A DNA stretch of 64,000 nucleotides from a virus. Shown here piece by piece: positions 1,099 to 63,968 of the stretch; position 1 is the first letter of the stretch, and each line of letters opens with the position of its first letter. Under the pieces are notes generated by a model, which worked only from the letters and a program-made list of their open reading frames with translations, ran no database searches and was not told the DNA's origin. Location: positions 1-64,000 of IMG/VR virus record IMGVR_UViG_3300009448_000012; one strand, 5' to 3'. A program made the position numbers and the translations under genes.

Positions 1099-1451
1099 CC
1101 GACCGGCGAGGCGAGGCGATGACCGAGATCGTCACCAGCTACCGCGAGTTGCGGAAGGCATGCAGTCGGCTGGAGAAGCTTTTGCAGCGGATCACCGACG
1201 CCGATGACCGCGCGCTGACCGACAAGGACCTGAAGCGCCTCGACAAGGCGGTCACGGTGATGAAGGTCGGCTTCAAGATCGTGAAGAAGGTTAGCGGCGC
1301 AACCAAACGCGACCCGGCGCCGCAGTGTGACGTGTGCCGGACGCCGTTGGGCGTCGGCTGGTGCTCGGCATGTTCCGCCGAGGAAGACGCCCGCGACGAC
1401 GCAAGCCGCCCTGTGACCATCCTGGGGGCTTCTGGAGGCATGCCCGAATGA
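1095..1451 (+). CDS. Hypothetical protein with CxxC..CxxC zinc ribbon
   Basis: CDVC...CSAC; ATGA overlaps at both ends. Confidence 0.65.
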   Translation: MTDRRGEAMTEIVTSYRELRKACSRLEKLLQRITDADDRALTDKDLKRLDKAVTVMKVGFKIVKKVSGATKRDPAPQCDVCRTPLGVGWCSACSAEEDARDDASRPVTILGASGGMPE

Positions 1452-1684
1452 CGAACGGACACCGCATCGACGTCGGGACGATCTGGCGAGAGGTCCAGGC
1501 GAACACCGCCCGGCTGATCGCCTGTCCGCGTCACCGGTTCCCGGACCGCACGGAATTCGGCCAGCGGTGGACCTGCGCGGCGTGTGGCGGCCTGCTCGAC
1601 GCCGGCGACGTCCTCGCCTACTGTCGAGGCTTCAAAGCCGCCGGCGGCGATCCTCGGGTCATCTGGGCACCGTTCGAGACATGA
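1448..1684 (+). CDS. Small Cys/His zinc-binding protein
   Basis: CPRH...CAAC; GGAGG RBS; stop overlaps the TerL ATG. Confidence 0.65.
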   Translation: MTNGHRIDVGTIWREVQANTARLIACPRHRFPDRTEFGQRWTCAACGGLLDAGDVLAYCRGFKAAGGDPRVIWAPFET

Positions 1685-3708
1685 ACATGCACGCGCCATT
1701 GATCCAGGAACCGGCGACGGTGTCGGAATTCCTCGGCGCGGGCGCGCCGCTCGACCCGGTGACGCTTTATGCGATCCTGGTGCTGACCGGCGCCGAGGTG
1801 GCGGGTCCGTATGTCCGCATGGCGTGCCAACGCCATCTGAACGACCTGAAGTACGGCGGCGGGCGCGGGTTGTGGTTCGACCAGGAAGCGGCCGCCCTGG
1901 TCTATGAGTTTTTCGAGAGCCGGCTTCGGCTTGCGGAAGGTCAGTTCGATGGCCAGCCGTTCCGGCTCCACATCTCGCAATCGTTCATCATCGGGTCGAT
2001 CTATGGGTGGAAGCGGAAGAACGACCAAGGGAAGGTCGTCCGCCGGTTTCAGCGCGCATACATCGAGATGGGGAAGGGCAACGGCAAGTCGCCGATGGTC
2101 GGCGGCATGGGCCTTTACGGCATGCTATGGGACCGCGAGCCGGGCGCGCAGATCTATTCCGCCGGCGCGACCTATGATCAAGCGTCCATCCTGTTCAACG
2201 ATGCCGTGAAGATGGCGCGCGCGGTCCCGGAATGGAACGACGAAGACGACCCGCTGATCCAGTACGCCGGGAACCAGAAGGTCTACAACATGGCGGTGAT
2301 CCCCCCGCCGCAAAGCCTGTCGTTTTTCCGGCCGATCAGTCGGGAAAAGTCGCGATCCGGATCGGGTCCGCGCCCGCACATGGCCTTGTGCGATGAGCTT
2401 CACGAACATCCGGACGGCGGCGTGATCGAGATGCTGGAGCGCGGATTTAAATTCCGCCAGCAACCGTTGCTGATCATGATCACGAACAGCGGGTCCGACC
2501 GTAAGTCCGTGTGCTGGGCCGAACATGAACACGCGGTCGCGGTGTGCGAAGGCAACGTCGAGGACGACAAAACCTTCGCCTATGTCTGTTCGCTCGATGA
2601 AGGTGACAAGCCGCTCGACCAGCCGGAAACGTGGAAGAAGGCGAACCCGCTGCTCGACGTCACGATCACCGAAGAATACCTTCGCGGCGTCGTGAAGCAG
2701 GCCAAGGACATCGCCGGCAAGCAAAACAACATTTTGCGGCTTCATTTTTGCGTTTGGACCGACTCGGCGACCGCCTGGATCAGCCGGAAGAAATGGGAAA
2801 GTTGCGAAGACCGGACGCTGAAGATCGAGGACATGCGCGGGCGCAAGGCGTGGGGCGGGCTCGACCTGTCGCAAACCAAGGACTTGACCGCGACCGCCTG
2901 GGTTTTCGAGGATGGTCACAAGCTGGTCGAGAACCGGAAGACGCCCGGTCAGTTCATCACGAAGCCGTGTTACATCCTGTTCGTTCGGAGCTACACGCCG
3001 GAAGAAACCATGCTGGAGCGCGCCAAGCTCGACCGAGCGCCTTATGACCAATGGGTCGAGAAAAAGCACATGGTCGGGACGCCGGGGCCGGTGATCCGCC
3101 TGGACATCGTCGCCGACGACCTCGCCGAGGACGTGAAAATGTTCGACGTCCAGGGCGTCGCGTATGATCAATATCTGATCCGTGATTTCGAAAAGGATTG
3201 GAACGACCTCAACCCGCCGGCGTGCAAATTCCACGACCATCCGCAAGGCGTGAGCTATCGCCGCGACAGCGACCTGTTCATGCCGCGATCGGTCGACAAG
3301 TTCGAAACGCTGTTGCTAGAGGGTCGTTTGCGGGTCCATGTGAATTTCCCGCTCCGGACGGCCGTCGCCGGCGCCGTGTTCTGGACCTCGCCGGCCGGGC
3401 TCAAACGCTTCATGAAGGACAAGGCGACCAGCCGCATCGACCCGGCGGTCGCGGCCGCCATGGCTGTAGGACTGGCGACCTTGAACGAACCCGACGACGA
3501 CAGCGTGTATAACAAGATCGGCGCGGCGAACGCGGCCGCCCAAGCCGCCGCGCAGGCGGAAGCGGAAAGAACCGGCGCCGTCGCCGCCGCGCTGGCGCCG
3601 GGTGGAGAAATCGACTACAAAATTCTGAACGACCCGACGCATCCGCTTTACGACGCCATGGTGCTCCGGTTCCGCAAATGGGAAGAAGATCAGGACGATG
3701 ACGACTGA
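1681..3708 (+). CDS. terL: Terminase large subunit (HK97/lambda-like)
   Basis: Walker A MGKNGKS-type motif (MGKGNGKS), Walker B ALCDELHEH, coupling motif ITNSG, WKKANP, nuclease GLDLS and RIDPAVA. Confidence 0.97.
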   Translation: MNMHAPLIQEPATVSEFLGAGAPLDPVTLYAILVLTGAEVAGPYVRMACQRHLNDLKYGGGRGLWFDQEAAALVYEFFESRLRLAEGQFDGQPFRLHISQSFIIGSIYGWKRKNDQGKVVRRFQRAYIEMGKGNGKSPMVGGMGLYGMLWDREPGAQIYSAGATYDQASILFNDAVKMARAVPEWNDEDDPLIQYAGNQKVYNMAVIPPPQSLSFFRPISREKSRSGSGPRPHMALCDELHEHPDGGVIEMLERGFKFRQQPLLIMITNSGSDRKSVCWAEHEHAVAVCEGNVEDDKTFAYVCSLDEGDKPLDQPETWKKANPLLDVTITEEYLRGVVKQAKDIAGKQNNILRLHFCVWTDSATAWISRKKWESCEDRTLKIEDMRGRKAWGGLDLSQTKDLTATAWVFEDGHKLVENRKTPGQFITKPCYILFVRSYTPEETMLERAKLDRAPYDQWVEKKHMVGTPGPVIRLDIVADDLAEDVKMFDVQGVAYDQYLIRDFEKDWNDLNPPACKFHDHPQGVSYRRDSDLFMPRSVDKFETLLLEGRLRVHVNFPLRTAVAGAVFWTSPAGLKRFMKDKATSRIDPAVAAAMAVGLATLNEPDDDSVYNKIGAANAAAQAAAQAEAERTGAVAAALAPGGEIDYKILNDPTHPLYDAMVLRFRKWEEDQDDDD

Positions 3709-4173: not shown

Positions 4174-5542
4174 AGCGCCGGTCGCACGGGTCACGCGCGA
4201 CGATCAGTACCATTCCGCGACGTCGCGGATCTTCTTCGCCGGCAAGACGCGGGCGGGCGTGCGCATCACCGGCGACAACGCGCTGACGATCTCGGCGGTT
4301 TGGGCGTGCATCCGGTTCTTGTCGCAGTCGATCGCGGCCTTGCCGTGGAATATCATCGACGACGTGACGAAGCTTCCGGTCAGCCTGTCGGTCAATGCGC
4401 AACGGGTCATCAAACGCCCGTCGCCCGAATATTCATCGTTTCAGTTTCGCGAAACGATGATGCATTGGGCGTTGCGCCACGGCAATGCCTACGCCGAGAT
4501 CGATCGCGATGTGCTGAACCGCCCGGTCGGCATGTTCCCGATTCATCCCGAACGCGTTTGTGTGATGCGCGACCCCGATACCCTGGAGCTTTTCTATACC
4601 GTGGACAACGGGACCGCACCGCCGACCGTCCTCGATGCGGCGTTCATGTTCCATTTGCGCGGCATGGGCGAAGGTCCTGTCGGCATGAACGTCATGGCCT
4701 ATGCGGCTGAAAGCCTGGGCTGGGTGAAAGCCGTCCAGCTATTCGGCGCCGGGTTCTTCGGCAACGGCGCGACGCCGGCCGGCATTGTGACCATGAAGAA
4801 GCCTTTGACGCCTGAAGGGCTCGCCGAGATCGAGAAGAAATTCCGGACGATGTACGGCGGGACGAAGAACGCCAACAAGACGGCCGTTCTCGATGCCGAC
4901 ATGGAATACAAGGCGCTGACCGTCGATCCGGACAAGGGTCAGTTCATCGAGACGAACCAATTCCTGATCGATGAGGTCTGTCGATGGTTCGGCGTCCCGC
5001 CGCATAAAATTTACAAGCTGCTGAATGCGACGTTCTCGAACATCGAACATCAATCCATCGAAGTCGTGATGGATTCACTGGTCCCGTGGGTCCGCCGGTT
5101 CGAGGACGAAGCCGAATACAAATTGCTTGGTCAGAACCGCGCCGGGCTCGTCAACAAGATGAACCTAAACGCCGTGCTGCGCGGCGATACGAAAACCCGC
5201 CTGGAGTATTTCCGGGGCTTGCGCGAGATCGGTGTCTTCCACGCCGACGATATTCTGGCGCTCGAAGATCTGCCGCTGATCGGCAAGTCGGGCGGCGGTG
5301 AAAAGCGCGTGATGCAAGGCCAGTACACGACGCTCGAAAAGATCGGCGAGGACCCGCCGAAGCCTGTCGCGCCGGCGGCGCCCGCACCAGGGCAACCGGA
5401 CCCGGCTGAACCGGACGAAGACGAAGCCGAGGACCCGCCGGCTGATCCCGAACGGGAGCAGACCGAGAGCGCCGAGACGACCGACGAATATCATCGCGCC
5501 CTTTTCACGCTCGACCGCATGGTGGAACATCATGGCCATTAA
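4124..5542 (+). CDS. Portal protein, HK97 family
   Basis: AVWACI..LSQSIAALP, GNAYAEI, FFGNGATPAG, FGVPPH, FSNIEHQ. Confidence 0.97.
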   Translation: MAGLKQARRRLARARAEAPVARVTRDDQYHSATSRIFFAGKTRAGVRITGDNALTISAVWACIRFLSQSIAALPWNIIDDVTKLPVSLSVNAQRVIKRPSPEYSSFQFRETMMHWALRHGNAYAEIDRDVLNRPVGMFPIHPERVCVMRDPDTLELFYTVDNGTAPPTVLDAAFMFHLRGMGEGPVGMNVMAYAAESLGWVKAVQLFGAGFFGNGATPAGIVTMKKPLTPEGLAEIEKKFRTMYGGTKNANKTAVLDADMEYKALTVDPDKGQFIETNQFLIDEVCRWFGVPPHKIYKLLNATFSNIEHQSIEVVMDSLVPWVRRFEDEAEYKLLGQNRAGLVNKMNLNAVLRGDTKTRLEYFRGLREIGVFHADDILALEDLPLIGKSGGGEKRVMQGQYTTLEKIGEDPPKPVAPAAPAPGQPDPAEPDEDEAEDPPADPEREQTESAETTDEYHRALFTLDRMVEHHGH

Positions 5543-7283
5543 GAAAATCGCCGTCGCGCCGGTGCATCCCTCGGCGGTTGGTCTGGAGCCGATCGCGGCG
5601 CCGATGATCCCGACGAACTGGCAAGGGGCGTTCGCCCGGCTGGTGGACAGCGTCACGATCGTCGTCACCGCGCAGGCGAAGAAGGTCGCGGACCTGACCC
5701 AAGCGCTCGCCGACGCGAACGGGCTGATCGCCGCGCTGACCAAGAAACAGGCGGATGATTACGCGCTGCTGGCGAAAGGGCTGGTTGGTCAGAACATCGC
5801 CGGCATTCGCGACGAAGCGAGCGAGATCCGCGCGGACCTGACCGACATCGCCGGCAAGGTCGAAGCGCTGATCAAGGGTCGCGCCGAGATCGTCGACAAC
5901 GTCCGCGCGACCGACAAGCGGATCGACGCCTTGCCGTCCGTGCATGAGACGGTCGCGAAGGTCGGCGAGATGGTCGCGGCCGGATACGAACATTCGATCA
6001 AGCTGATCACCGACATGACCGTCGAGAAGGTCACAGCGCTGGAGGCGGCCGCCGGCGCCGCGCGGGATATCGCCGAGGCGGTCCGCGACGAAGTCCGGAC
6101 GGTGGCGACCGGTCTCGGCGACCTGACCGAGACGCACACCGCGACGCGGCGCCAGCTCGACGCCCTTGCGTCCGACGTGAACGATATCGGCGAGGACCTT
6201 GGCGGCAAGGTGTCCGCGCTGACCAAGGGGCATTCCGACCTCACCGCGGCGAACTCGGAAAACGCCGCGGCGAATTCGAAGCTCGCCGCGGTCGTGACCG
6301 AGCACGTCGACCGGCTCGGCGCCAATCTCGGCACGCTCGAAGAACGGGTCGAGGACGCGGCGGCGAAGTTCGGCGACAAGGTGTCCGAACTGAAGGATCT
6401 GGTCGAGGACTACGCTTCGACGGCGAGCAGCGAAGACGCCGGGCTTGCGGACCAGCTCGGGAAGCTCGACGGTCATGTGACGGCCGCGCGTGAGGTCGCC
6501 GACGCCGCCCGCACGCGCGCGGCCGAAGCGATGAGCCATTGCAACGATCTTTCCGGCACGGTGAGCGCGATCATCAAGGCGCGGGCGGATGAGGCTGATC
6601 AATTCGCCGAGACGGTCGAGACGGTTGGGAACCAGGTTAAAACCATGGTCGACGACCTCGCCGCGCAATTCGGCGAAATGAGTCAGATGTCGGTCGACGA
6701 CGCCAAGCGGATCGAGCAGGTCGAGGAAACGGCGCGGACGATCGGCGCCGAGGTCCAGGGGCTCGCGAAGGTGATCGAAGCATGCCGCGACGCCGGCGCC
6801 GAGATCGCGACCGATGTGACGGACATGCTTCGCCGTGTGACCATCTCGCTTGGTCAAATGCCTTCCGGGTTCATGATCGACCAGGACGGCGAGCTTGTGC
6901 GGGTTGCGCAGTCGGGCGAGGTGACGAAGATCGGCAAGGTGGTGTCGCACGGCCGCGACGCACCGGAAATCGTTTCCGTGAAGATGGAAGGCGAGCGGTT
7001 GATTTTCGCTCGATCGGATCGGACTGAGATCGGATGCACGGTCGTTCGCGCGACCGTCGAGCCGGCGCCGGCGATCACCGGACCCGACGCGGTCGATCCG
7101 CTGACGATCGGCGCCCTGTCGAAGGACCCGGCATTGCTGGCGCGGCAGGTCGAACACATGGCCGAAATGCGGGCGGGTGGTAAAAAATATAAGGAAATAT
7201 CGGAGAAATTTGGTACTTCTGAAAAAACGGTCGCCAAGCTGATCAGGGGTTATCAGAATGCCCAAACTAAAAAAGACGCCTAA
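5532..7283 (+). CDS. Long coiled-coil head-module protein with C-terminal HTH-like motif
   Basis: Heptad Ala/Leu/Asp-rich body, IDQDGELV..GKVV motif, C-terminal KKYKEISEKFGTSEKTVAKLI. Confidence 0.8.
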   Translation: MAIKKIAVAPVHPSAVGLEPIAAPMIPTNWQGAFARLVDSVTIVVTAQAKKVADLTQALADANGLIAALTKKQADDYALLAKGLVGQNIAGIRDEASEIRADLTDIAGKVEALIKGRAEIVDNVRATDKRIDALPSVHETVAKVGEMVAAGYEHSIKLITDMTVEKVTALEAAAGAARDIAEAVRDEVRTVATGLGDLTETHTATRRQLDALASDVNDIGEDLGGKVSALTKGHSDLTAANSENAAANSKLAAVVTEHVDRLGANLGTLEERVEDAAAKFGDKVSELKDLVEDYASTASSEDAGLADQLGKLDGHVTAAREVADAARTRAAEAMSHCNDLSGTVSAIIKARADEADQFAETVETVGNQVKTMVDDLAAQFGEMSQMSVDDAKRIEQVEETARTIGAEVQGLAKVIEACRDAGAEIATDVTDMLRRVTISLGQMPSGFMIDQDGELVRVAQSGEVTKIGKVVSHGRDAPEIVSVKMEGERLIFARSDRTEIGCTVVRATVEPAPAITGPDAVDPLTIGALSKDPALLARQVEHMAEMRAGGKKYKEISEKFGTSEKTVAKLIRGYQNAQTKKDA

Positions 7284-9514: not shown

Positions 9515-9555
9515 TAAATCGGCCCTGTGATCATCATTTAAAGAGGACTGCCCCC

Positions 9556-11197: not shown

Positions 11198-11936
11198 TGC
11201 CTTTATTCGCGGCCTTGCCGCGCTCGGGTACACCGTGCGGACGAAGCCGCTCCAGCGCATAGCCGCCGACGACGTCCTGGTGATCTGGAATCGGGGCGCG
11301 CAATTCCAGTTCGAGGCGACCCGCCACACCAAAGCCGGGTCGCCGATCATCGTCGCGGAAAACGGGTACACCGACGCCGTCGACGACCATGGGCATCAGT
11401 GGTTTTCGCTCGCGCTCGACCATCATAACGGCGTCGGGCGCTGGTGGATCGAGGACCAGCCGCGCTTCCCGTCCATGGGCCAAGCCGTGGCGCCGTGGCG
11501 GGCTGAAGGGTCCTTCATCCTGGTGTTGCCGCAACGCGGCATTGGGGCGCCCGGCGTGGCCATGCCGCAGTCTTGGCCGCGCCTGATCGCGCAACGGCTC
11601 GCCAAGGTCACGGCGCGGCCGGTGCGCATCCGCGCGCATCCTGGTCTCAAGTCCTTGGCTAAGCCGCTGGCGCCCGCGCTGGAGGGCTGTCACGCCGTCG
11701 TGACTTGGGGATCAGGCGCGGCGCTGAAAGCGATCATGCTCGGCGTTCCCGCCTTCCACGAACTTCCCGGATGGATCGGCGCGCCGGCCGCGCGCTTCGG
11801 CATCGACCAGGGCGTCGAAAACCCCTTCCTCGGCGATCGCGGTCCGATGCTCGAACGAATGGCATGGTCACAATGGCCGATCGCCGACATCGCCGCCGGG
11901 ACCGCCTTTCGCACCCTTCTGAAATGCAATCACTGA
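11148..11936 (+). CDS. Capsule-synthesis (KpsS/KpsC-like) GT-B glycosyltransferase, paralog 1
   Basis: ENGY, VRIRAHP, VVTWGSGAALKAIMLGVP, C-terminal AWSQW...I..G. Confidence 0.7.
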   Translation: MPTAVCLIRDNVHYRHDAFIRGLAALGYTVRTKPLQRIAADDVLVIWNRGAQFQFEATRHTKAGSPIIVAENGYTDAVDDHGHQWFSLALDHHNGVGRWWIEDQPRFPSMGQAVAPWRAEGSFILVLPQRGIGAPGVAMPQSWPRLIAQRLAKVTARPVRIRAHPGLKSLAKPLAPALEGCHAVVTWGSGAALKAIMLGVPAFHELPGWIGAPAARFGIDQGVENPFLGDRGPMLERMAWSQWPIADIAAGTAFRTLLKCNH

Positions 11937-11982: not shown

Positions 11983-12819
11983 GTGAAAGTTCATTTATTC
12001 GCCGTATCCCGCCACGGCCGCGCCGGACACATCGCCGAGGCGATGCAAACCGGGCTGAAGCGCCACGGCATCGCCGCCGAGATCATCACCGACCAGCGAA
12101 CCGGGCGCGCCGTGCTCGGCGACGTCGCGATCGCGTATGGTTGGGTGCATGAACCCGTCTTCACCGCGTACCGGCACGCCGGCGCCCACTATGCTTATTT
12201 CGATATGGGCTATTTCAACCGGAAGCCGTCGAAGGACAAGGGCGGGTCCCGCGACGGTCATCACCGGCTCGCCGTGAACAGTTGGGACACCGCCGACACA
12301 ATGCGGACCCTGTGTCCATCCGACCGATGGGACGCGCTCGGGATCGAGGTCGCGCCCAATCGCGAGCAGCACGCCGGCGCGGTCCTGGTGTGCGGCATGT
12401 CCGAGAAGGCGGCCGGGACGCATGGGTTCCGGCCGGGTCAATGGGAAGCCGAGACCGTCGCGACCTTGCGCGCGGCGTTCCCGACGACCGAGATCGTCGA
12501 CCGACCTAAGCCCGCGAACCTGGACGCCGGCGAGCCGATCGCCGAGGTCCTGAAGCGGACGGCGATCGTCGTCAGCCACCATTCGAACGTCGCGGTCGAC
12601 GCCCTGGTCGCCGGCGTGCCGACCTATGCGCGAAAGGGCGTCGGCAAGCTGGTGTCGTGCTCGAACCCGGTGGACGCGGTCCGCATGATGGGGCCGATCG
12701 TCGCCGAGCCGATGCGCCGCCAGATCCTCGCCGACGTCGCATACGCGCAATGGTCGCCGCCGGAGATGCGCACCGGAGCGGCGTGGTCTCACATTCGGAG
12801 CCTGATCGATGCACAATGA
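11983..12819 (+). CDS. KpsS/KpsC-like glycosyltransferase, paralog 2
   Basis: DMGYF, DRPKP, VVSHHSNVAVDALVAGVP, AYAQWS..EM..G. Confidence 0.7.
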   Translation: MKVHLFAVSRHGRAGHIAEAMQTGLKRHGIAAEIITDQRTGRAVLGDVAIAYGWVHEPVFTAYRHAGAHYAYFDMGYFNRKPSKDKGGSRDGHHRLAVNSWDTADTMRTLCPSDRWDALGIEVAPNREQHAGAVLVCGMSEKAAGTHGFRPGQWEAETVATLRAAFPTTEIVDRPKPANLDAGEPIAEVLKRTAIVVSHHSNVAVDALVAGVPTYARKGVGKLVSCSNPVDAVRMMGPIVAEPMRRQILADVAYAQWSPPEMRTGAAWSHIRSLIDAQ

Positions 12820-13358: not shown

Positions 13359-14221
13359 AATTCGCCTTCTATGTCTCGACCGGCAAAAGCCGGGAAGCGC
13401 CGCTTCGCGACGCCTGGACCGCCGGCGCGGCCGCGCTCGGCGACGAACTGGTGGTGACGTCGAACGATGTCGCGGCGCCGATCGACGCCGACGTCGCGGT
13501 GATGGTCGGACTCAAGTCCATCGACCTGCGCGAAGCGTGCAAGGCGGCGGGTCAGCGCGTGCTGATCTTCGACAAGGGGTATGACCGGAAAGAGGATTGG
13601 TGGCGCGTCTCGATCGATGCGCACCAGCCGACCGACTATCTGACCAAGCTGGTCCGCCCGCGCGCGCGCATGGACAAATGCGGGTGGAACCCGAAACCGT
13701 GGCGCGCGCCGACGCCTGACGGGCATGTGATCATCGCCGGCGGCGGCCGCAAATACTATGACGCCCACGATCTTCCGGACCCGGCGGACTACATCGCCGG
13801 CGTCGTGGCGGACCTGCGCGCGGCCGGCTGCTCGCGCCGGATCTGGTATCGCCCCAAGCCGTCGATGGCGGACGTTGCGCCGGTTGCCGACACGACGCTG
13901 TCGCGGCACAAGTCGATTTATGATCTGCTGAAGGGGGCTCACGTCCTGGTCACGTTCGGCTCGAACGCGTGCTTCGAAGCGGTGCTGGCCGGAATACCGT
14001 CGATCGTCACCGGCGACGCGGTGATGCGCCCGATCTCGTCCACACGGCTTGACGAGATCGAGGCGCCTCACTTAGCAGACGACGGGGGGCGTCTTTCGCT
14101 GCTGTCGAGCTTAGCATACTGCCAATTCCGGTTAAGCGAAATCTCGCAAGGTTGGGGCGTTCATGAAATTAAAGCGCAATTACAAGAAATTGTACGAAAC
14201 GCACCACACGAACAACCCTAA
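13355..14221 (+). CDS. KpsS/KpsC-like glycosyltransferase, paralog 3
   Basis: DKGY, WYRPKP, LVTFGSNACFEAVLAGIP, LAYCQF..EI..G. Confidence 0.7.
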   Translation: MKFAFYVSTGKSREAPLRDAWTAGAAALGDELVVTSNDVAAPIDADVAVMVGLKSIDLREACKAAGQRVLIFDKGYDRKEDWWRVSIDAHQPTDYLTKLVRPRARMDKCGWNPKPWRAPTPDGHVIIAGGGRKYYDAHDLPDPADYIAGVVADLRAAGCSRRIWYRPKPSMADVAPVADTTLSRHKSIYDLLKGAHVLVTFGSNACFEAVLAGIPSIVTGDAVMRPISSTRLDEIEAPHLADDGGRLSLLSSLAYCQFRLSEISQGWGVHEIKAQLQEIVRNAPHEQP

Positions 14222-30007: not shown

Positions 30008-30019
30008 GACCCTGTGACC

Positions 30020-45026: not shown

Positions 45027-45030
45027 AGGT

Positions 45031-47334: not shown

Positions 47335-47338
47335 GGCG

Positions 47339-50300
47339 CTAGACCTTCAGGAATTGAACGGGAAGCTCGGGATCATATGCAAGGATCTCGGTCACTTCCT
47401 TCGCGGTCAAAGGCTTGCCGTCCGTCTTGCCGTTCACCGCGACATATCCGCCGGCGATCTTGCTGGTCAACGTGCTGACATGGATCACGACGCTGATCGG
47501 ATAGGTCACGACGGGAAGGTTCGCGCGATAGACGACTTCGACCTTCAGTTCAGCTTTGTCGCGAAGCCCGGCGACATAGGTCTTGCATGCGACGAGCGTG
47601 GGGAATTTCGTGAACAGCTCGCGGGCGGCGTCTTCGCGCGTGTCATGCGCGGTGGAGCACACCGGACCGTCGCCGCGTATGATGGCTGAAGCAGTGAACA
47701 TGATGGGGAACCCCTTGAGAGTGGCGGGCGCCGCGCGGGCGCCCTGGTTGGTGGTCAGCGGGCGAAATGGGTCCAGTGTGCGTTCAGACGGTCGCGATCG
47801 GTTGCGCCGGCATAAAGGGAGTGGACACCGGTCGGACCGTACATCCGAAATTCGTTGTCACTTTTGCAGTAAATCAGCTTGCAAGTCCGGTCGGCGCTCA
47901 TGACGAAAGCACCGGACTTATTGAGAAGCTTCGCGAACTGTTGGGTCGTGATATTCATTTGGGGAACCCCTTGAGAGTGGCGGGCGGCTCGCGGCCGCCC
48001 TGGTTGGTGAATTATTTCCGAGGCGCTTTGATAGTGGCTTCAAGGGCGGCGATACGGCGGACCATTTCTTTTCTTGTTATCATGCCGTCCCGGTGGTGTT
48101 GCTTGGCGTCTTCGATGTACAGCTTGACTTCATCGTTCGTCATCTGGGGAACCCCTTGAGAGAACCGGGCGACACCGCGCCGCCCGTGCAACAAGTCATA
48201 AAGGCTCACTTGTGCTCAGTCAAGATTAAAAATCTTTTTAATTTTTCCAGGCGTTGAGCGCCGCGCGTGCGGCTGCTTCCCTGGTGGCGAAGCGGCGGAA
48301 ACCGCCGGAAATGGTCACAAGGTCCTGATAACTCGCACCGTCGAACTTCCACGCGGACCAGCGCTTGTTGCTTTTGACGCCGCTCGACCCGGCCGTCGAG
48401 ACGGTGACGGTGATGACCTTGTCGCCGTGACCCTTGATCACCGTCTTCCATTGCCGGGCGCTTGAACCTTGCAAGAACGTCTGACCGCCGATCTCGAAGC
48501 TTTCCAGCTTGGCGGCGCGGGTCGCTTCGTCGCGGGCGTCCGCTTGGGCGATGCGATGGTCGAGGTCGGTTTTGCCGGTGCTGTCGATCGGCAGGGCGCG
48601 CAGCTCGGCGGCGACGTTGCTGCCCAACGCAACACCGCGATGAACCGTCGCCTCGATCCGCATGTCGCCGACGCGGGCGAAGGCTTGCGTATACCGGATG
48701 ACGACGGGATGACGCTCCAGGCGGACCAGGATGTCGTCGAGGCATTCGCCCATGTTCAGCGCGAGCGCGAACACGCGATTGACGAAGCGGGTTTCGCGGG
48801 TCTCGCCGGCGTCGATCGCGTCGGCAAGTTCGGCGTTGGTCATGGTCTTGATCGGTTTGGTCATAGCGGGGAACCCCTTGAGAGTGGCGGGCGCCGGCGA
48901 TGCCGGGCGCCCTGGTTGGTGATCAGCGGCAGGACAGGACGAAGGCGAGAGCGGTCCTCGGCGACTTGGCTTGAACCCAGCCATTGTTACAGCGAAGGAC
49001 GCGGCGATCGTCGTCGTCGTAGCACAGATATAGGCCGTGCTCGTTGCAGGTCTTGAGCGCTTCGACGACCATGTTCCAAGATGTGGAGCGGCGGCGGAAT
49101 GTCATAACGGGGAACCCCTTGAGAGTGGTGGGCGCCGCGCGGGCGCCCTGGTTGGTGATTAGATCAGGCGAGATTCGACCCAATGGATTTCACCGAATGC
49201 GTCTTCGAAACGCCAAGCCATTTTAGAGGCTTCTGTTTCTGAAACGAAAGTCATGGGCGTGCGGTCTTGGTTGCAAACCAGCATGAATTTGTCGTTTTGC
49301 ATGAAACGGATGACGAAGATCATATCGGGGAACCCCTTGAGAGAACCGGGCGACACCGCGCCGCCCGTGCAACAAGTCATAAAGGCTCACTTGTGCTCAG
49401 TCAAGATTAAAAATCTTTTTAATTCACGACCCGGTATTCGAGGCGCGTCAACCATCCCGACATATCGGGAAATCCGTCCGGGTCGGTGTATCCGTCCAGC
49501 CCGATGAACCGGCTTTCGCCGGTGTGCTCGCCGGTCAGTTGGGTGATGTAAACGATCAAGCCTTCCTGGATCAGCATGAAGCCGACACCGTCTTTCGCGA
49601 GCACCGCCCTTGTGATCATGATGCTGAACCCTTTGGTTGAATGTTACCGGCGAACCGGCTTGCGTTTGGGAAGGTCCTCGACGATCTCGCGTTGCTCGCC
49701 GGGCAAGCCCGACCGGTTGTCGCTGTAGGCTTGCGCAAGCTCGCGCGTCTCGAAGCGCATGTGCGCGCCGCGATTGGCGATGAACCATTTCCACACGACC
49801 CGCCCTTCGAACCGGTACCGGATGCGGAAGCGGCGCGGACCGTCGTCGACCTTCTTCACCAGCCGACTGACGACCTCGAACAGCTCGGACAGGCGCGGGC
49901 ACATCGTCGGGCCGATCGGAAGCGCGACGATCTCGGCGAGCAGTTCGCGGGCTTCCTGCGCGGTCATGTCGACCTGGATTGCGTCGGTCATGACTGCTCC
50001 GCCTTCAGCTCGATGATCTCGAAATGGACGTCGGTGATCAGTTCTTGCATGTGATGGCGGATGCGCAGTTCGGCTGATGCGCGGGACGCGGCGAACTGCG
50101 CATAATGGCGGGTGACGCCTTGGGCGGTTTCGCCGACGATCAGCCACGCGAACGGGCGGATGCGGGCGGTTTCCTGATTCGGAATATTCAGGACGTGACC
50201 GGTCGTGAAGATGACTTGCTTCATGGGGGAACCCCTTGAGAGTGGCGGGCGCCGGCCGGAGCCGGGCGCCTTGGTTGCGGCCTAGTCGAGGATGAAGGTT

Positions 50301-51594: not shown

Positions 51595-53655
51595 CTAAAA
51601 CAATAATTTATTGGTCTCGGCGATATAATGGTCGTAATCGATATCGGGAATGTGCTCGCCGTCATAAACGTCTTGTACCTTCACCTTGCGGGTATGGTGG
51701 AATTCGGCGTGTTCTTCGAATTCATATTTGTATTTGAAGCGCGGACCATGTTCGCCGCATTGCGAGCACCGAAAGTCGCCCTTGGGTCCGTAGCAGGTCG
51801 CCAGCAACTCGGCGAACAGCGCGAACCGGCGCCATTCGTCCGGCTTTTTCGCGGTGGGCGGCATCAGTTTGAAGATCGGCTGACCGGCCGGGCTCACGTA
51901 ATAGCGGGTTGTTTGCTGGCATTCGGTCCCGTCGCCGAGGATCAGCCGCGATTGCCCTGTGACCTTGGCGCGTGCGAGGAAGTCCCATTGGTCCGGGTGG
52001 CGGTGGATGAAGTCGGTCGGGTCATGATCATCACAAAGCGCCGCATCGGCCGCACGCGGGATCACCAACATCGAATGGTCCTTGTGCCACGCCTTTTGCT
52101 TGCCGACCTTCAGTTCGAAATCATAGGCGCCTTTGCGTTTCCGCTTGCCGGCTTCGTCCTTGTTGATCGCGTCCATGTTGTATTCGCCGATGTAGCTGTT
52201 CACATCGCGGATGAACATGCGCCCGTAATGCAGCTTCTCCAGCTTCATTTGCGTGACCGATTGCCACCAGTCGCACACCGCGTCGAACTGCGCGCGCATC
52301 ACGCGCGGAAACTTCAACGTCATGCCGTCCGTGTTGACCTGAAGGATCTCCAGGCTGGGCACGGCCGCCAGAAACCGTTCGGCCAGCATGACCAGCATGA
52401 GTTGCCCGTTCACCGTGATCGCCATGGTGTATTGCGGGTCGTAAAACGGTCCGTGCATGTTGTTCGAATCGCCGTAAACGCCGTTGTTCGCGAGCTTCAG
52501 CGCGTCGGACTTGACCATGTCCTTGATCGCCTTCGCCGCGACGCGTTGGGCTTTCAGCTCGCGATAGACCTCGACGAACAGCGGTCCGAGGTGGGCAGGG
52601 TACAAGCCCCATTCGATGGCGATCGAGGGATAGAAGGCTTCGACGTCGACGTCGACGATCTCGTAAATCGCGTCGGCGACGACCGCGCGCCGCGTCACCG
52701 ACCCGTGCAAGCCGCCCGTGCCGAACACCATCGTGAAGCCGTCGACGCTGGCCTTCAGGTTCTTGAAGACGCCCTTCGTCTCGACCTTGGCGGATTTCAG
52801 CTCGCCGGCTTCGATCTCCAGCGGGTTCAGCACCTTCGCCTTGAGCGTTTCGAGCACCGCGTTCGGTTCCGGATTGTCGAACCTGATCCACGGGAAGATC
52901 ACATCGGCAAGGGCGACGCTGTTCCGCCACGTCTGGCGCGGCTGGCGCCGGCCGTTGACCTTATCAAAGCAGATGCCGGGCGATCGTTCTTCGAGCGCTT
53001 TGGTGAAGAAGGATTTCCCGATTTTGGTGTCGTTATCGTTCAGATGACGTTCGCCGAGTTGTTCGCGAAACCCGATCATCTCCATCGTTTCCCAAGCGAA
53101 TTTCTTGGTACTGAACAGGTCGTTCCGGTTGTAGTCTAGACCGATATCCATTTCCGCATGCGTCAAGACCTTCGTATGATGGAAGGGCATTTCCTGGACG
53201 CGGCGGGCGCGCATGTTCATCTGAAGCGTCTTCAGGCTGGTCATGCGGTTCTTGTTGTCGAAATGGTGGATCAGCCGTAAGTCGACCTGCTTCACCAGTT
53301 CATCGCGATAGTGGACCCGGTGAATCCAGGACGGACCGCCTCGCTTGCCGTTCTCGATGATCTCGGTCGCGAACAGCTTCAGGTTCGCGCAGATCTGGAG
53401 CGCCGGCGTCCCGGCGTCGATCAGCTCGACCGCGCGGTGGATGATCGGATAGTCGAAACTGAGATTATTGAAGCCGTACATCCGGCGGAAATATCCGGAG
53501 CGCAGCACCGACACCATAAGAGGACCGTCGTTCCGGCGATCGCTGATTTCATAGATCCAGGTTGTATCGTCACCCTTGGTCAACGGGGTGAACCCTAGAC
53601 AGAACCAGTTCGGAAGGGTCTCGACGTCGCCGATGGTGTCGATCCATGCGTTCAT
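51595..53655 (-). CDS. DNA polymerase, family B
   Basis: Exo DVET and GFNN..FD; motif A DVEAFYPS; motif B KLANNGVYG; motif C NTDG. Confidence 0.93.
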   Translation of the reverse strand: MNAWIDTIGDVETLPNWFCLGFTPLTKGDDTTWIYEISDRRNDGPLMVSVLRSGYFRRMYGFNNLSFDYPIIHRAVELIDAGTPALQICANLKLFATEIIENGKRGGPSWIHRVHYRDELVKQVDLRLIHHFDNKNRMTSLKTLQMNMRARRVQEMPFHHTKVLTHAEMDIGLDYNRNDLFSTKKFAWETMEMIGFREQLGERHLNDNDTKIGKSFFTKALEERSPGICFDKVNGRRQPRQTWRNSVALADVIFPWIRFDNPEPNAVLETLKAKVLNPLEIEAGELKSAKVETKGVFKNLKASVDGFTMVFGTGGLHGSVTRRAVVADAIYEIVDVDVEAFYPSIAIEWGLYPAHLGPLFVEVYRELKAQRVAAKAIKDMVKSDALKLANNGVYGDSNNMHGPFYDPQYTMAITVNGQLMLVMLAERFLAAVPSLEILQVNTDGMTLKFPRVMRAQFDAVCDWWQSVTQMKLEKLHYGRMFIRDVNSYIGEYNMDAINKDEAGKRKRKGAYDFELKVGKQKAWHKDHSMLVIPRAADAALCDDHDPTDFIHRHPDQWDFLARAKVTGQSRLILGDGTECQQTTRYYVSPAGQPIFKLMPPTAKKPDEWRRFALFAELLATCYGPKGDFRCSQCGEHGPRFKYKYEFEEHAEFHHTRKVKVQDVYDGEHIPDIDYDHYIAETNKLLF

Positions 53656-53999: not shown

Positions 54000-54190
54000 C
54001 GCTGGCGCCACCACCAGACCAGGACGTCGCGCCAGCGCCAGCGGCCGGAGCCGGCGCACTGGTCGCAACGTTCCTCACGAACGTTCCCATATCCGCCGTA
54101 AACGGCTTCGATGCCGGAGCCGCCGCACATCCGACAGTCGCCCACGGCGCGCCAGCGCCAATAGAGGCGCCACTTCAGCCCTGTGATCAT
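53996..54190 (-). CDS. DnaJ-type zinc-finger protein
   Basis: CRMCGGSG..CDQCAGSG. Confidence 0.6.
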   Translation of the reverse strand: MITGLKWRLYWRWRAVGDCRMCGGSGIEAVYGGYGNVREERCDQCAGSGRWRWRDVLVWWWRQR

Positions 54191-55103: not shown

Positions 55104-57360
55104 CGGACAAGCCAATTGCTCACGGGCTCGGACATGCGCGCTTCGTCCGCGATGATCACAGCGGGGTCGGCGCGGCGGATCGAGGTCGGCCAGAACCAGT
55201 TCAGAAACTCGCGTTCGCGACCCGTCCAGTCGCTCGCCGCGATGAAGCCGCTCGGCGCCGGCGCGCCCCATGCGCGCGGGAAGAACCGCCAGTAAATGAT
55301 CGGGTACCAGCGGAAGAAGATGTCGATCGGCGCGATCCAGCCGCGCAAGTCGGTCGTCAGCTTGAAGTGATAGAGGCGATCGGTCGAGCGTCTGATTCTC
55401 ATTTGGCGGGTTTCCTGTGGCTGATGACGACACCTTTCCGGAAGACGCGGCCGGTGCCGCACGGGCATTCGTGCTCTAGGTCCTCGGACCAGTGCGCGGC
55501 CGCGTAGGGGCCGAACCTGTGCTGGCGGTCGCAGTGACAGCGCCACAGGCTTCCGGGGCTGTACGCGGCGCCCTTGACCGCTAGGGGAATGGCGGGTTCG
55601 ACCTCGGTCATGTCACACCGTCCCAAAGTCGTCGATGTGACGACCCTGGTCGTCATAGACGTGCATCTTCGTCATGGTCCCCGCATTGTCGGCGGCGACC
55701 TTCAGCGCCTCGACCAGGGTGTCGAAGTCGCCCTGGACCCAATCGCTTCCGTCGCGGTCGAAGGTGTCCACACCGACGACGCGGAATTTCCCCACGGGGG
55801 CTTGCAAGGTAGTGCGGACGAAGCTCATTGGATGCATTTTCCTACGGTTTGCAGGGCGGTGATCAGATCGGCGAACAGCGTGAACGCCCGCACGATCGCA
55901 AGTAGGTTGACGACCAGGGTCGCGCTTACGATCACGACCAGCACGCTAAGCCACGGGAACGGGCGTCCCGTGGGGAACAGCTTCAGGATGCGTCGCGAAC
56001 AGCGTTCGGCGGCCGTCCGGTGCATGGGGACCTCGCCGTGTATCAGCTCGTGAACGATCTGCTCAAGGCGTGAATCGTTGGTCATGTCGTCGCCTTTGTT
56101 TTCGGATGCGGCGCGGCCGGGAAGCCGGCGCCGTGCATCGCGTAAATCCACACGGTATTGTCGGGCACGCCGGCGTCGATCGCCACCATCATCACCGCGC
56201 GCGCCAGCTCGATGCGGTGATGCGCCTCGAACGATTTCAGCGGCGGCCGGGCGTGCTCCAGGTAGTCGGCGAGCAGCACGGCGACCCGGTTCCATTCCAC
56301 GCGCAGGCGATCAGCCCGCGCGGGCTTGCGCTTCAGCATCGTCCGGACGCGCTCCAGGGCGGCTTGCTGGTCCGTCTTCATGCCGGCGACGACCTTCCTA
56401 GATTGTCGATCAGCGTCTTGACGTAATTGCATGCGATCTCGGTCGCGTCGGTCCATTCGCCGCACACCGCGCGGTGATGAAGCAGGCTTTCAAGACCCTG
56501 CTTTTCTAACCAGGTCATGACCCCTGGATCGAGCTTGCGCCCTGACAGGTTGACGCGGATGAACATCCCGACGCGCGTCACGCTCAGCCGATAAAAATTG
56601 ATGTATCCGGTCATCCGATCGGCCGTTTCTTGCCGTTGTCCATCAACCATTTCATGAACCCGGCCGGCATCGGCGAGCAACGGCACGTTTCGGGCGTGCA
56701 TTGCTTGCGATCGATGGGACAGCGCGCGGTCGGTGGCTTGGGTGTTTCGGTCATGGCAGATCCAAATAGCGAACGATCTCGGCGTCGGTCATGCCGCCGG
56801 CGCGCAAGCGCTCGACGACCTGATGGGCGACCAGTTGCGCGACCGGATAGGTGATCGCGTTCAGCGACCGGCGAAGCTCGGTCCATAGGGCATGGGCCAG
56901 CCGCTCGGCGGGCGCGTTCTCGAACCCCGCTTCAATCTCGATGTCAATCATAGGGGATCGGCATTTCGAACGGCGTCCGCCCGTGGACGCCGTAACTTGA
57001 ATGTGCCGACATGCGGAAGATTCGCATCTCCATCCGCAGTTCATGGGCGCGGTCAAGATCGTTGCGAAGTTTCGCCTCGGCGATGTCGCGACTGAAGCGG
57101 TCGAAAATGGTGAAATAGTCGACCGGCGACATGCGGCGCCGGCGCCCATAGTTCGCGCGCAGGTATTCCGCCCGATGCGTGAGCGGATCGCGCTGGCCGG
57201 TCATGCCTGTGATGATCCGAGCGCGCCAATACTCCTCGGACCGGCTGGTGTGCCATCGGTCGCGTAAGTGAGTGCCGTCGTCGACGACGACGTGCCACAG
57301 GTTGGCGGCGCAATGGGCGCGGCCGGACGCATAGACGATTCTGCCTTTTGGGTCGCTCAT
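55100..57360 (-). other. Nine coupled small hypothetical genes
   Basis: 55100-55402, 55399-55611, 55613-55828, 55825-56085, 56082-56381, 56378-56614, 56611-56754, 56751-56951, 56944-57360. Confidence 0.6.
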
Positions 57361-57599: not shown

Positions 57600-58766
57600 A
57601 GCGTCAAGATCCACAGGACAACCACGACGGCCGCAATACCGCCAAACAATGCACCGACCAGGGCGCCGAGCAGGGCGACCAGCACACGGCCGCGCTGGCG
57701 CCGCGCCGGCGGCGTTGGCCAGTCGTCGATCGCCCGGTGGGTGCTCGGCGTATCGAGGACCGACCGATAGAGGATGAACCCCGGCACGCTGTCGCGGGCG
57801 CGGCCGATCGGGCTGTGACCACGGTTCTCCGGCGGCGCCGGCGGCCGTCCGCTGGAGCCGCCACGGGGCGGCGTGGCGGGCGCGGGCACGTCCGGCGCGC
57901 GATAGCCGCCGCGCGACGATTGCGGGGCTGGTGGCGGCGGTGGCGGTCCCTTGGGGCGGTTGTTCGGTTCTCGGATCATCAGCGGCGTTTCCTCACTAGC
58001 GCGACGCGTTCGTCGTCGGCGGCTTTGCGCTCCAGCTCGGCGGCGCGTTGATTGAGCGCGGCCGCCGTCTCGGACTGTTTGGTTTCGCGAGCGGCCTTGG
58101 CCAGCCGGCGAAGGTGGAGCGCTCGGCGTTTCATCCCGTGGATTTCAGCGTTCATCGATCGCGATCCTGATCAGCTTCAGATCGGCGGGCGTGATCTGGT
58201 GGAGCATGCGGCGCACAGCCGCCCTGTGATATTCCCGCGCGTGATGGTTTGGCCAAAGCTTCGCGCCGCATGCCGCCAGCGCGAGACGTTCGACCATCTC
58301 AGCAAATGCAACCGTCGTGTCCGCGACGGATTGCTTGTTCGTCCCCCTAGTCATAATCACACGGTCAGGCGCGATGCAGTGCGTGCGGGCGCCTGAAGAA
58401 TACGGGCGGATTGCGGCGCGACCAGCCGGCGGACATGCCGACAGCTCGCCAGTAAGGTTTCGGGAACGCGACCGGGCGGCCGTCCGGCTGGACCGTGTCC
58501 GGGTCCCAATAGACGACGTTGAGCGCGGGACCCTTTTCGTTCTCGCCTTGGCAAAGCGCGACAAGGCGCGGTCCCCAAAGCTTGCCGGCCGGCGGCGTGC
58601 GCAAGCCGAATTCCTCGGCGCGGCTGATCGGATGCCAGCCGAACGCGTCGATCAGGTCAGCTTCAAGGTGTTGGGTTTCTTCTTCGAAATTCGTCGAGGA
58701 CATTTTCTCGACGTGGTCGCTGTAGCGTTCGATCGCTGCGCGGATGGTCTCGTGAACTGTCTGCAT
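57596..58766 (-). other. Small genes including a Pro-rich TM-anchored protein (57596-57979) and 58365-58766
   Basis: ORF track; 58766 is preceded by AAGGGGTTCCCC. Confidence 0.55.
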
Positions 58767-61740: not shown

Positions 61741-62874
61741 TTATGATCCTGACTTCATTGCAGCTTTGAACAGTTTCGCGATTGCGGATTGTGTCGCGGG
61801 AACCAGCTTCCGCCCTGCTGGGTCCCGTTTTACGACCATAGGGTCATTCGTAATTCGGACGTCGGCACCTTCCCTTTCCATTTCCGCCGGCGTCTTGGGG
61901 ACTTGCTTATAAGGGTCGACACCGGTCAGCATGCCGACGATATCCATCGGAAGCGCGAATTCGCGGTCCTTGGTCCGCTGCTCGAACATCCATCCGGGAA
62001 TAAACTCGCCGCGCAGCATGCGCCCTTCGACCTCGGCGGCGACGCCGGACTTGCGCGCCTTGATCAGGGCGCCGGCGATCTCCAGGAACGAGGCTTCGGC
62101 GCCGAGCGCGGCCGCGCTCATTGCTTCCATGCGGCCGCCGCGTATGCCTTCGAAGATGGTGTAAATCGAGGTCGTCAGCGCCTCGCACCGCGCGCGGCCG
62201 CCGCACTGTGTACACCAGGGACCGACTCGACCTTGGGGATCGCCGGCGAGCGCGGCAAAGGCTTTGCTCGCAAGCCAATTATACCACGTCGTCAGCTCCG
62301 GTTCATCGACCCGCCAGTCGCGAATCTTCCCGTCCGGATGGTGCGGGCGCGGCTGATAGATCGTCATGATCACATCGTCGTGCTTTTCCGGGTCGAAGGT
62401 CGCGAGCGCTTCGCAGATCAGTTGCGGATTGCCCGTGACCTCGATCGGCAACCAGCCGTATTTCAGTTCGACGATATGCAGGGTGGACGAATTCGCGATC
62501 ACCATGCTGTCCAGTCGTCCATTGATGGACAAATGCGGAATGCTTACCTTGACTTGCGTGTGGACTACCTCGCCGAGCGACTGGCAGTAATCGACATATC
62601 CCTGGACGTGCTGGACCATGTCGGCGGTCACGATCCAGCCGTTCGGCGCGGTCTCGCCGAAGAACTCGCCGGCGCTGACCGCGTCACCGCGCAGCACGCC
62701 GTTCGCGACCCAATCGGCCGCCTGACCTTCTCGCCGGGCGTCGGTGTCGTTCGGGTCGTCGTCGATCGGCGGCGGCAAACCGTCGAGCGCGCCGGCGGGT
62801 CCTCGGCGGGACAGTTGCGCGGTCAGCGCGCAGTTCGTCCATAAATGGGCGGTCGAAGGTGTCAACATTTCCAA
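61741..62874 (-). CDS. Cas4-like PD-(D/E)XK nuclease (DUF2800-like)
   Basis: PS.AHLW.NC, G.LD, ELKYG, NPQL, IYQPR, WCTQC.....C. Confidence 0.85.
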   Translation of the reverse strand: MEMLTPSTAHLWTNCALTAQLSRRGPAGALDGLPPPIDDDPNDTDARREGQAADWVANGVLRGDAVSAGEFFGETAPNGWIVTADMVQHVQGYVDYCQSLGEVVHTQVKVSIPHLSINGRLDSMVIANSSTLHIVELKYGWLPIEVTGNPQLICEALATFDPEKHDDVIMTIYQPRPHHPDGKIRDWRVDEPELTTWYNWLASKAFAALAGDPQGRVGPWCTQCGGRARCEALTTSIYTIFEGIRGGRMEAMSAAALGAEASFLEIAGALIKARKSGVAAEVEGRMLRGEFIPGWMFEQRTKDREFALPMDIVGMLTGVDPYKQVPKTPAEMEREGADVRITNDPMVVKRDPAGRKLVPATQSAIAKLFKAAMKSGS

Positions 62875-63968
62875 AATCCCCGCGCGTCGTTCGGCATGCC
62901 GTGGCGTAACAGCGCCTCGACGTCGTCCAGGGCGGCGCGATAGCCGCCGTCATATCCTTCACCCGCCAGCCCGCGCCCATAGACGCCTTGGGACTGCTCG
63001 GCGATCCGCTGGTCGATCTTGCGGCGCGCCGAGACCAGTCGCTTCAGGAATTGGGCGCGGGTCAGGGCCGGCATGTCAGACCGGCCGGCGCGGCTTGGTC
63101 GCCCAATTCCGGCGAACGTACATATCGACCGTTTCCAGGGCGACGCCGCCGACCTGATCGAGTAGGGACCCGACGCTGACCTTGTGATTATCCGGATTTT
63201 TCATCAGGCTTGTCATGATCAGCGCGCGAAGACCGATCCAGAATTCCGCGTCCGCCTCGAACCGCATGTCGGGCGCCGGCGGCGGCGGGGCGAAGGGTGC
63301 GGTCGGCGGCTTCGGCAGGGGTGGCGGGGTGATGGGCTTCGGACCCTGTGACCGGGCGTCAAGCGCTCGCTCGGCGCCGGGCGGCATGGGCACAGGGAAC
63401 AGCTTTTCGGTACCGAGATACGTCTTGCCCTTGTGCTGCTCGACCATCAGGCGGGAATGCTGACCGCATCCTTCGCACTCATAGACCACGCTGACCGCGT
63501 CGCGGCGCGTTGACGGGTTCTCATGGATGCGCGGGTTCGGGAAGGTCAGGCGCGGTCGATCATAGGCGCGGTGACTGTAGGTCGGACTGTCCTCGCCGGC
63601 GGGGCGGGCGTGGATGTCGACGGCCGTGTGATGCACGAACGTGTTGCGGCAATGGGCGCAAATCAGCGCATGCGAGGCGTCGCCGTCGTGGTCGATGATA
63701 ATGCTCATTTGATCCAGCCTCGTTCGCGAAGACCTTCGACGATCTCGATCGTGATGTTTTCGCAGTGTTTTGACATCTTGACGGTGTCTAGCGTGTCAAG
63801 AGTCCCGGCTTTCTCGCGTGCTTTCAAGATTGCTTGCGAGAACGTATGAGGCATGTTGCGCCGGATCATTTCAATGTCCGCAACCATTTCTTGCGGTACG
63901 GTGCGAGCCGCCTTCAAGCGCGCGATTGCTTCACGTTGTTCTTTCGAATGCGGTGCAGGTTTGTTCAT
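62862..63968 (-). CDS. Three hypothetical genes (62862-63074, 63076-63708 with zinc ribbon, 63705-63968)
   Basis: CAHC..CEGC in 63076-63708; tightly packed. Confidence 0.6.

Follow-up and report, generated by a model that had tools for sequence, protein, structure and literature searches.

A strand-polarised DNA word in the genome of a groundwater phage, and its likeness to the programmed nick sites of other phages

In phage tf, whose genome has two arms, all 14 nicks interrupt the top strand, at 5'-TACT/RTGMC-3'; ligase seals them, and more than 90% of molecules carry them (PMC3517423). Single substitutions at positions 1, 3 or 4 of the consensus leave a site uncut; nicking is lost with a C at position 1, and tf leaves CACTGTGAC uncut (PMC3517423). 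In phage Rembedalsseter a similar word, WACTRTGAC, is present at 13 sites, all of them on the same strand, and 61 phages of little nucleotide identity retain the motif (PMC11780129). The T5/BF23 and phiKMV-like nicks (5'-CGACNNNNNCCTA/CTCCGG-3') are also site-specific, lie on one strand and fall at words conserved within a group (as cited in PMC3517423 and 10.1101/619015). The known nicked cases are few, mostly Pseudomonas phages and coliphages; both the function and the enzyme of site-specific nicks have gone unexplained since the T5 finding in the 1960s. Here we describe a word, CCCTGTGAYCAT, that occurs in about 16 copies on the + strand only, regardless of gene direction, in the record of an uncultured phage, IMGVR_UViG_3300009448_000012. 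The record is linear, 74,557 bp long and an estimated 91% complete; the window referred to throughout is the stretch of 64,000 bp formed by its bases 1-64000.

The word has much in common with the sites of the tf/LUZ24 group (WACTRTGAC in Rembedalsseter): both are short and asymmetric, number about 9-16 copies that keep to one strand while the arms of the genome are transcribed in opposite directions, lie within genes as well as at junctions, and are kept across relatives of low identity with positions partly conserved. Our k-mer scan returns TACTGTGAC at 11:0 when applied to tf, and in the tf record several nick sites fall exactly at start or stop codons, as do some of the sites here. An original prediction, made from the letters of the window, had given the tf consensus, and it had it right (5'-TACT/RTGMC-3', PMC3517423). 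It had also held that CTGTGAC fits that consensus: the core is identical in the two words, whereas positions 1-2 are CC here and TA in tf. Our word further differs in having a 3' extension, YCAT, and in the enrichment of part of it on the opposite strand. The T5 and phiKMV nicks differ from it in that their consensus is unrelated, their copies are fewer (4-5 major nicks) and they belong to other phage groups.

Copy number, polarity and the two tiers of the word

The genes of the record are transcribed in three parts: + strand genes from 1 to 31.4 kb, - strand genes from 31.6 to 65.2 kb, and + strand genes again from 65.2 to 74.5 kb. The exact 12-mer CCCTGTGACCAT occurs eight times in the window, where 100 shuffles gave an expectation of 0.00, and nine times in the 74.6-kb genome (the ninth copy at 68111), always on the + strand. 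Its core, CCCTGTGA, is found 14 times on the + strand of the window and never on the - strand, against 1.04 copies expected; genome-wide the figure is 16 to 0, with copies beyond the window at 68111 and 74162. The 16 are divided 6, 8 and 2 among the first + arm, the - arm and the second + arm, and all are on the + strand. All eight exact copies and the further core copies named in the original prediction were recovered, and its statement that orientation is the same in both arms is borne out.

The enrichment stands above both dinucleotide and codon-preserving nulls. When codons and amino acids were preserved, 2.5 copies of the 12-mer were expected against 9 observed, and 7.7 copies of the core against 16; these non-zero expectations stem from copies outside our crude gene calls, and the observed counts were reached in none of the 500 shuffles. 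In the + arm the word encodes PVT(I/M); in the - arm all three frames are used, and several sites lie at gene junctions. The codons that it forces are rare (CCT, 8.5% of Pro; ACA, 5.1% of Thr; AGG, 2.8% of Arg; TCA, 4.1% of Ser): the mixture of frames and the forcing of these codons, here with a usage of 3-9%, had both been proposed at the outset. Spacing of the + strand sites is more even than chance (coefficient of variation 0.52, P=0.0003), every gap measuring at least 1.7 kb. We conclude that this is a real, selected, family-level directional DNA word. The observations support selection on DNA and not on protein, with the full word following the chromosome and not transcription. Should the nick reading prove wrong, the word would remain a directional DNA signal under strong selection, without a described reader.

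The sites of the window are given below, in window coordinates, together with related and partial forms; G006 is a related viral contig, described in the following section, and HMSP1-Susan is a Sinorhizobium phage.

1409..1420, + strand: exact CCCTGTGACCAT, about 150 bp 5' of the large terminase open reading frame
4783..4794, + strand: CATTGTGACCAT, nine-mer whose prefix is not CCC, in the portal gene
6833..6844, + strand: CCGTGTGACCAT, nine-mer whose prefix is not CCC
9523..9534, + strand: CCCTGTGATCAT, between the major head gene and the next gene
12308..12319, + strand: CCCTGTGTCCAT, one mismatch
13723..13734, + strand: GCATGTGATCAT, degenerate here; G006 has the full CCCTGTGATCAT at the same place
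16918..16929, + strand: exact 12-mer, glycosyltransferase/methyltransferase region
20912..20923, + strand: CCATGTGACCAT, nine-mer whose prefix is not CCC
24730..24741, + strand: exact 12-mer, tail fibre gene (read as DPVTI); exact at the same place in G006
26713..26724, + strand: exact 12-mer, tail fibre gene (read as APVTM); G006 without counterpart
30010..30021, + strand: exact 12-mer, start of the endolysin-like gene; G006 has CCCTGTGATCAT there
32475..32486, + strand: exact 12-mer, within a - strand gene, read as MVTG
36121..36132, + strand: CCCTGTGATTAT, at the stop codon of the 1046-aa orphan gene (- strand)
37985..37996, + strand: exact 12-mer, within the 1046-aa - strand gene; exact in G006
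39935..39946, + strand: exact 12-mer, within a - strand gene; exact in G006
46488..46499, + strand: CGCTGTGACCAT, one mismatch, within the UvrD-like helicase gene (- strand); G006 without counterpart
49608..49619, + strand: CCTTGTGATCAT, nine-mer whose prefix is not CCC
51955..51966, + strand: CCCTGTGACCTT, within the DNA polymerase gene (- strand)
54179..54190, + strand: CCCTGTGATCAT, within a - strand gene, read as MITG
58222..58233, + strand: CCCTGTGATATT, core with a degenerate 3' part, between - strand genes
63344..63355, + strand: CCCTGTGACCGG, core with a degenerate 3' part, within a - strand gene
2912..2923, - strand: GCTTGTGACCAT, nine-mer without CCC
11864..11875, - strand: CATTGTGACCAT; G006 identical at the same place
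29819..29830, - strand: TGTTGTGATCAT
30825..30836, - strand: CGCTGTGATCAT
36032..36043, - strand: CGCTGTGATCAT
45019..45030, - strand: ACCTGTGACCAT, the form found on both strands of HMSP1-Susan
48311..48322, - strand: CCTTGTGACCAT
55152..55163, - strand: CGCTGTGATCAT
62366..62377, - strand: CGATGTGATCAT

The 3' nine-mer of the word, TGTGAYCAT, is found 21 times on the + strand and 11 times on the - strand, where a rough estimate from composition gives about 0.25 copies per strand. The prefix CCC precedes 12 of the 21 nine-mers on the + strand and none of the 11 on the - strand (Fisher P=0.0016); with these set aside, the nine-mer without CCC numbers 9 on one strand and 11 on the other. Prefixes on the - strand include CGC (three times), CCA, CCT, ACC and CAT, never CCC, and are often a single letter away from it (all of those named but CAT). 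Because the prefix is confined to the + strand in this way, the polar unit is the full 12-mer and its 3' part is not polar. Sense and antisense copies of the nine-mer stand at 14:14 here, and the two are equal in every genome compared. The invariant centre of all variants is T followed by GTGA; TGTGA itself is present 96 times in the genome.

The original claim that all copies lie on the + strand needs to be divided accordingly: it stands for the CCC-prefixed form (16:0 genome-wide) and falls for the nine-mer, with its 11 copies on the - strand against 21 on the +. The positions that it listed for one-mismatch copies on the + strand (12308, 46488) and for near copies on the - strand (45019, 48311) are correct, and the list was incomplete, missing one-mismatch copies at 6833 and 20912 on the + strand and a copy at 63386 on the -.

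Related genomes and the search for a reader

Viral contigs were scanned with two 14-letter forms of the word. Most hits were single and attributable to chance; the scan yielded four contigs, G006, G007, G008 and G009. One of them, G006 (IMGVR_UViG_3300031184_000007; 34.7 kb, GC 0.56), is syntenic with the window from 10.6 to 47.3 kb at 35-78% amino-acid identity. Oriented as our genome, it carries CCCTGTGA at 13:0 across both arms, and the word is its most enriched k-mer. The two tiers recur: CCC precedes 10 of the 13 nine-mers on one strand and none of the 8 on the other (P=0.001). Sites 24730, 37985 and 39935 are letter-perfect in G006, where their flanks are 68-81% identical; at site 30010 the Y position is the sole difference, and several G006 sites are without counterpart in the window genome. 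Because the number and polarity of sites are conserved while positions turn over, the comparison of these sequences demonstrates that the word itself is under selection. Four further terminase fragments, with large terminases (TerL) about 72% identical to ours, also carry copies of the word, exact or with one mismatch, on the TerL strand.

In more distant genomes the nine-mer is enriched, on both strands and with a variable prefix: G009 has 10:7 copies in 45 kb, G007 2:4 and G008 3:0, and the cultured Sinorhizobium phage HMSP1-Susan (MG214783) has 7:5, mostly as ACCTGTGACCAT. Control counts with the reversed pattern were zero in this comparison. These four genomes have a replication module in common with the window phage, at 28-48% identity, consisting of a DNA polymerase, a gp2.5-like protein, a DUF2800 exonuclease, an SF2 helicase, a resolvase and an NrS-1-type primase-polymerase (genome positions 51595-73642 in our record). 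All or part of the module is also found, at 24-50% identity, in Schmittlotzvirus (Agrobacterium phages 7-7-1 and OLIVR4), Rigallicvirus (P106B), Jedunavirus (Klebsiella) and Yokohamavirus (Edwardsiella) as well as in HMSP1-Susan, and the virion genes of these phages are unrelated to ours. The nine-mer is present once in Rhizobium phage P106B and is absent from RHph_X2_24, two phages whose alignment to the primase-polymerase is confined to its C-terminal half; it is absent, too, from RHph_X2_26 and Paracoccus phage Shpa.

Two observations on other words belong here. A polar word of Edwardsiella phage MSW-3 was rejected, as it proved to be one tandem coding repeat. P106B (NC_023566), which lacks our word, has a dispersed eight-mer of its own, CGTCCAGG, with 14 copies on the + strand and 12 on the -, where about 2 are expected.

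The gene contents of the genomes were compared for a protein that might read the word. No gene is restricted to the word-carrying genomes, and no candidate DNA-binding protein is common to them. One nuclease of 154 aa, encoded at genome positions 70391-70855 on the + strand, belongs to no Pfam family, has an invariant D90...E104-x-K106, and gives a structural model (pLDDT 87) resembling the Holliday-junction resolvases RecU, Hjc and VRR-NUC. It is conserved in all phages carrying the replication module and was rejected as the specific reader because phages without the word have the same nuclease.

Four Hyphomicrobiales genomes of about 5 Mb, chosen as proxies for a host that may itself differ, all hold prophage terminases related to ours. 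They contain CCCTGTGA 34-71 times and TGTGAYCAT 23-46 times, on both strands and once per 70-200 kb. Because the word is thus 30-60 times sparser in genomes of the proxy host order than in the phage, the comparison points to a phage-borne reader.

Possible programmed nicks and alternative readings

We tentatively read CCCTGTGAYCAT as a set of strand-specific nick sites of the T5/tf type, by analogy with the systems set out above; this is the best supported of the readings considered, with a reasonable chance, short of an even one. The word would be recognised by an enzyme with activity on a single DNA strand, probably one encoded by the phage lineage. Its copies would mark programmed single-strand interruptions in the + strand of the packaged genome, comparable to those of T5, phiKMV and tf/LUZ24, and on the model of tf (TACT/GTGAC) the enzyme would cut at the T-G step, as CCCT/GTGAYCAT. 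We infer the nicking itself, the position of the cut and the phage origin of the reader. The enrichment of the nine-mer without CCC on both strands might reflect a protein that binds the nine-mer in either orientation and cuts only behind CCC; alternatively, the copies of the - strand may be disarmed sites.

Several findings weigh against nicking. The word agrees with TACTRTGMC/WACTRTGAC at 7 of 9 positions, the exceptions being the CC at positions 1-2. A tblastn comparison of 97 open reading frames with tf gave no meaningful match, so that no protein is shared at the level of BLAST, and no nickase candidate (HNH, GIY-YIG, HUH or other) appeared in Pfam and PHROG scans of about 60 proteins. 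The even spacing is lost in G006, where pairs of sites lie 0.5-0.7 kb apart. Finally, the nine-mer is enriched on both strands here, in G006, in G009 and in HMSP1-Susan; such enrichment of a sub-word is unreported for tf, where near-sites are rare. Because a C at position 1 abolishes nicking in tf, the word would not be a site for the tf enzyme itself. We treat it as a site that would work like those of the tf class but not as belonging to the tf family, because positions 1-2 differ and no protein is shared with tf. In a low-depth groundwater run, 2 of 16 listed contig ends (36111 and 39951) lie 5-10 bases from sites 36121 and 39935; with a rough P of about 0.04, this is not counted as evidence.

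Polarity of this kind might serve a process that involves no cutting. A phage protein could bind the word as a polar site and so orient some process along the chromosome, for instance as a one-way signal to a replication fork or translocase, or as a checkpoint in packaging or ejection; the nine-mer would then bind either way and the CCC-extended form would supply direction. We judge such a site unlikely. In its favour, polarity is strict and independent of transcription, and the nine-mer on both strands with the 12-mer on one is the two-tier layout that it calls for. Cumulative GC skew, moreover, rises steadily across the window, and GGCGG and GGTGG are polar alike in our genome and in G006, suggesting that the strands are treated differently throughout. 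It is held back by the lack of a candidate DNA-binding protein shared among the word-carrying genomes and by the polarity of the word, which does not switch at the candidate origin near 60 kb; we know of no such orienting system in tailed phages. Other short words are also confined to one strand (+:-): CAGCTC 40:0, GGGCTC 42:0, GGTGGG 23:0, GGCGGGC 49:1, GGCGGCGG 28:0 and CTGGG 26:1, with CAGCAG biased in reverse (2 on the + strand, 22 on the -). They are unrelated to the 12-mer and one-stranded in both arms, and the absent orientation lies far below the codon-preserving null for the words that were shuffled, among which CAGCAG was not. G006 shares the direction of the G-rich words and the polarity of GGGCTC but not that of CAGCTC. 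Phage T7 escapes EcoP15I by having all its CAGCAG sites in one orientation, and polarity of the 12-mer might similarly be a by-product of escape from restriction enzymes that act only on pairs of sites facing head to head. Exactly that pattern is seen in CAGCTC, GGGCTC, GGCGGGC and CAGCAG, and palindromic sites are strongly avoided: CCGCGG is present 3 times against 85 expected and CCCGGG once, CTCGAG, CAGCTG, GGATCC, GAGCTC and GGTNACC are absent from the whole window, and GANTC, the CcrM site, occurs 68 times against about 250 expected from base composition. By analogy, then, the polarity of the short words looks like evasion of this type on top of a general strand asymmetry. For the 12-mer we give the idea very little credence. 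The word is wholly one-stranded, as are the T7 sites and several hexamers here, but it is a 12-letter word that is strongly enriched, not a short word at ordinary frequency, and Type III restriction sites have 5-6 letters. Evasion removes one orientation without multiplying the other and cannot create an enrichment by orders of magnitude; the 12-mer is also letter-perfect at homologous places in G006. At most, evasion could explain the missing - strand copies.

The phage's own replication enzymes suggest another use for the word: the NrS-1-type primase-polymerase might take it as a signal on the template. The enzyme would recognise GTGA in single strands, begin synthesis opposite the T immediately 5' of it and copy CCCT to give a purine-rich primer; full sites would be confined to the strand displaced in one-way (rolling-circle) replication, with the weaker nine-mers of both strands serving early two-way replication. 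For the NrS-1 enzyme the recognition sites are 5'-GTGA/GTGG-3' and TTTGGTTA, with synthesis beginning at the first base 5' of the site, while ORF904 of pRN1 recognises GTG (PMC8718748). Our phage encodes an enzyme of this type, of 788 aa with the NrS-1 helix-bundle domain, DUF5906 and a VapE-like domain, and the central T and GTGA of every variant fit an anatomy of CCCT|GTGA, with a pyrimidine start base just upstream as in AEP primase-polymerase sites. The steady GC skew and the enrichment of the nine-mer in G009, G007 and HMSP1-Susan, which have the same enzyme at 37-41% identity, speak for it too. However, the reading is weakened because the word does not co-occur with the enzyme across phages: Agrobacterium phages 7-7-1 and OLIVR4 have a full-length and equally similar enzyme (38-39%) and the whole module with only 1 and 0 copies of the nine-mer, and Edwardsiella phage MSW-3 and Klebsiella phage SBP have 2 and 4. 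Known primase sites are of 3-8 letters, not 12, and any of the 96 TGTGA in the genome could serve. We therefore regard priming as rather improbable, and to our knowledge no genome-wide priming code has been described for AEP primase-polymerases. The original prediction had also raised a Chi- or KOPS-like signal, which host AddAB/RecBCD or FtsK would read to protect or orient phage concatemers. The density of about one site per 4.6 kb and the polarity resemble those of Chi in E. coli, and G-rich words here are polar as well; yet the word is longer than any Chi or KOPS known to us, and other Sinorhizobium and Agrobacterium phages have 0-1 copies. Because the word is so sparse, and on both strands, in the four proxy genomes of the host order, we consider a host signal highly unlikely. 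The stoperators of cluster A mycobacteriophages are many copies of an asymmetric site of 13-14 letters, spread through the genome and within genes and following transcription. Our word is like them in being asymmetric, dispersed and in part intragenic, but it does not flip between the arms; for this reason stoperators are set aside, in agreement with the original view that they fit less well. A combination of readings can also be imagined, though it is distinctly speculative: TGTGAYCAT would be read either way by a replication factor of several alphaproteobacterial phage genera, the CCC form would mark the displaced strand for DNA-primed starts by the primase-polymerase in one-way replication, and starts left unsealed could be the origin of 'programmed nicks'.

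If the sites are indeed nicked, the phenomenon would extend to siphovirus-like phages of probable alphaproteobacterial hosts. With the core shared with tf in the absence of shared proteins, the two words may have a reader in common or be subject to the same chemical constraint at CT/GTGA, and the two-tier layout separates what polarity requires (the CCC prefix) from the part kept on both strands. Were the combined, two-tier code true, it would be the first natural genome-wide priming code of an AEP primase-polymerase and would give a mechanistic explanation of phage nicks. HMSP1-Susan, a cultured carrier of the related word, makes the question testable at the bench.

Genome layout, probable host and minor observations

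The record is that of a tailed phage with a tape measure, siphovirus-like, and the phage is present in two groundwater metagenomes from 2017. The first + arm encodes the large terminase, portal, head protease, major head protein, tape measure, tail fibre and endolysin. The - arm encodes the DNA polymerase, the UvrD-like helicase, a gp2.5-like single-strand binding protein, a PD-(D/E)XK exonuclease and many orphans; the second + arm holds the SF2 helicase, the small nuclease and the NrS-1-type primase-polymerase. A megablast search of the first 20 kb against the phage collection gave no match. The terminase best matches those of Paracoccus and Rhizobium phages, and related prophage terminases are held by Microvirga, Ancylobacter and one Rhizobiaceae genome; because of these matches, the host is likely to be an alphaproteobacterium of the order Hyphomicrobiales.

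A second repeated element, GGGGAACCCCTTGAGAG, has 12-14 copies on the + strand, at window positions 44839-51280 and 58769. Read on the - strand it is a GC hairpin plus ribosome-binding cassette, directly 5' of the ATG of successive early genes. It was rejected as part of the 12-mer system, since the cassette follows transcription.

The largest gene encodes an orphan of 1046 aa (window 36129-39269, - strand). It had no match in Pfam, PHROG, PDB or Atlas, and viral contigs queried with this orphan or with the DNA polymerase as single proteins gave no related loci. Among 1.8 billion representative proteins it has only 19 relatives. Their alignment contains repeated Trp-rich modules of about 100 residues each, and the conservation of the protein in G006 is partial.

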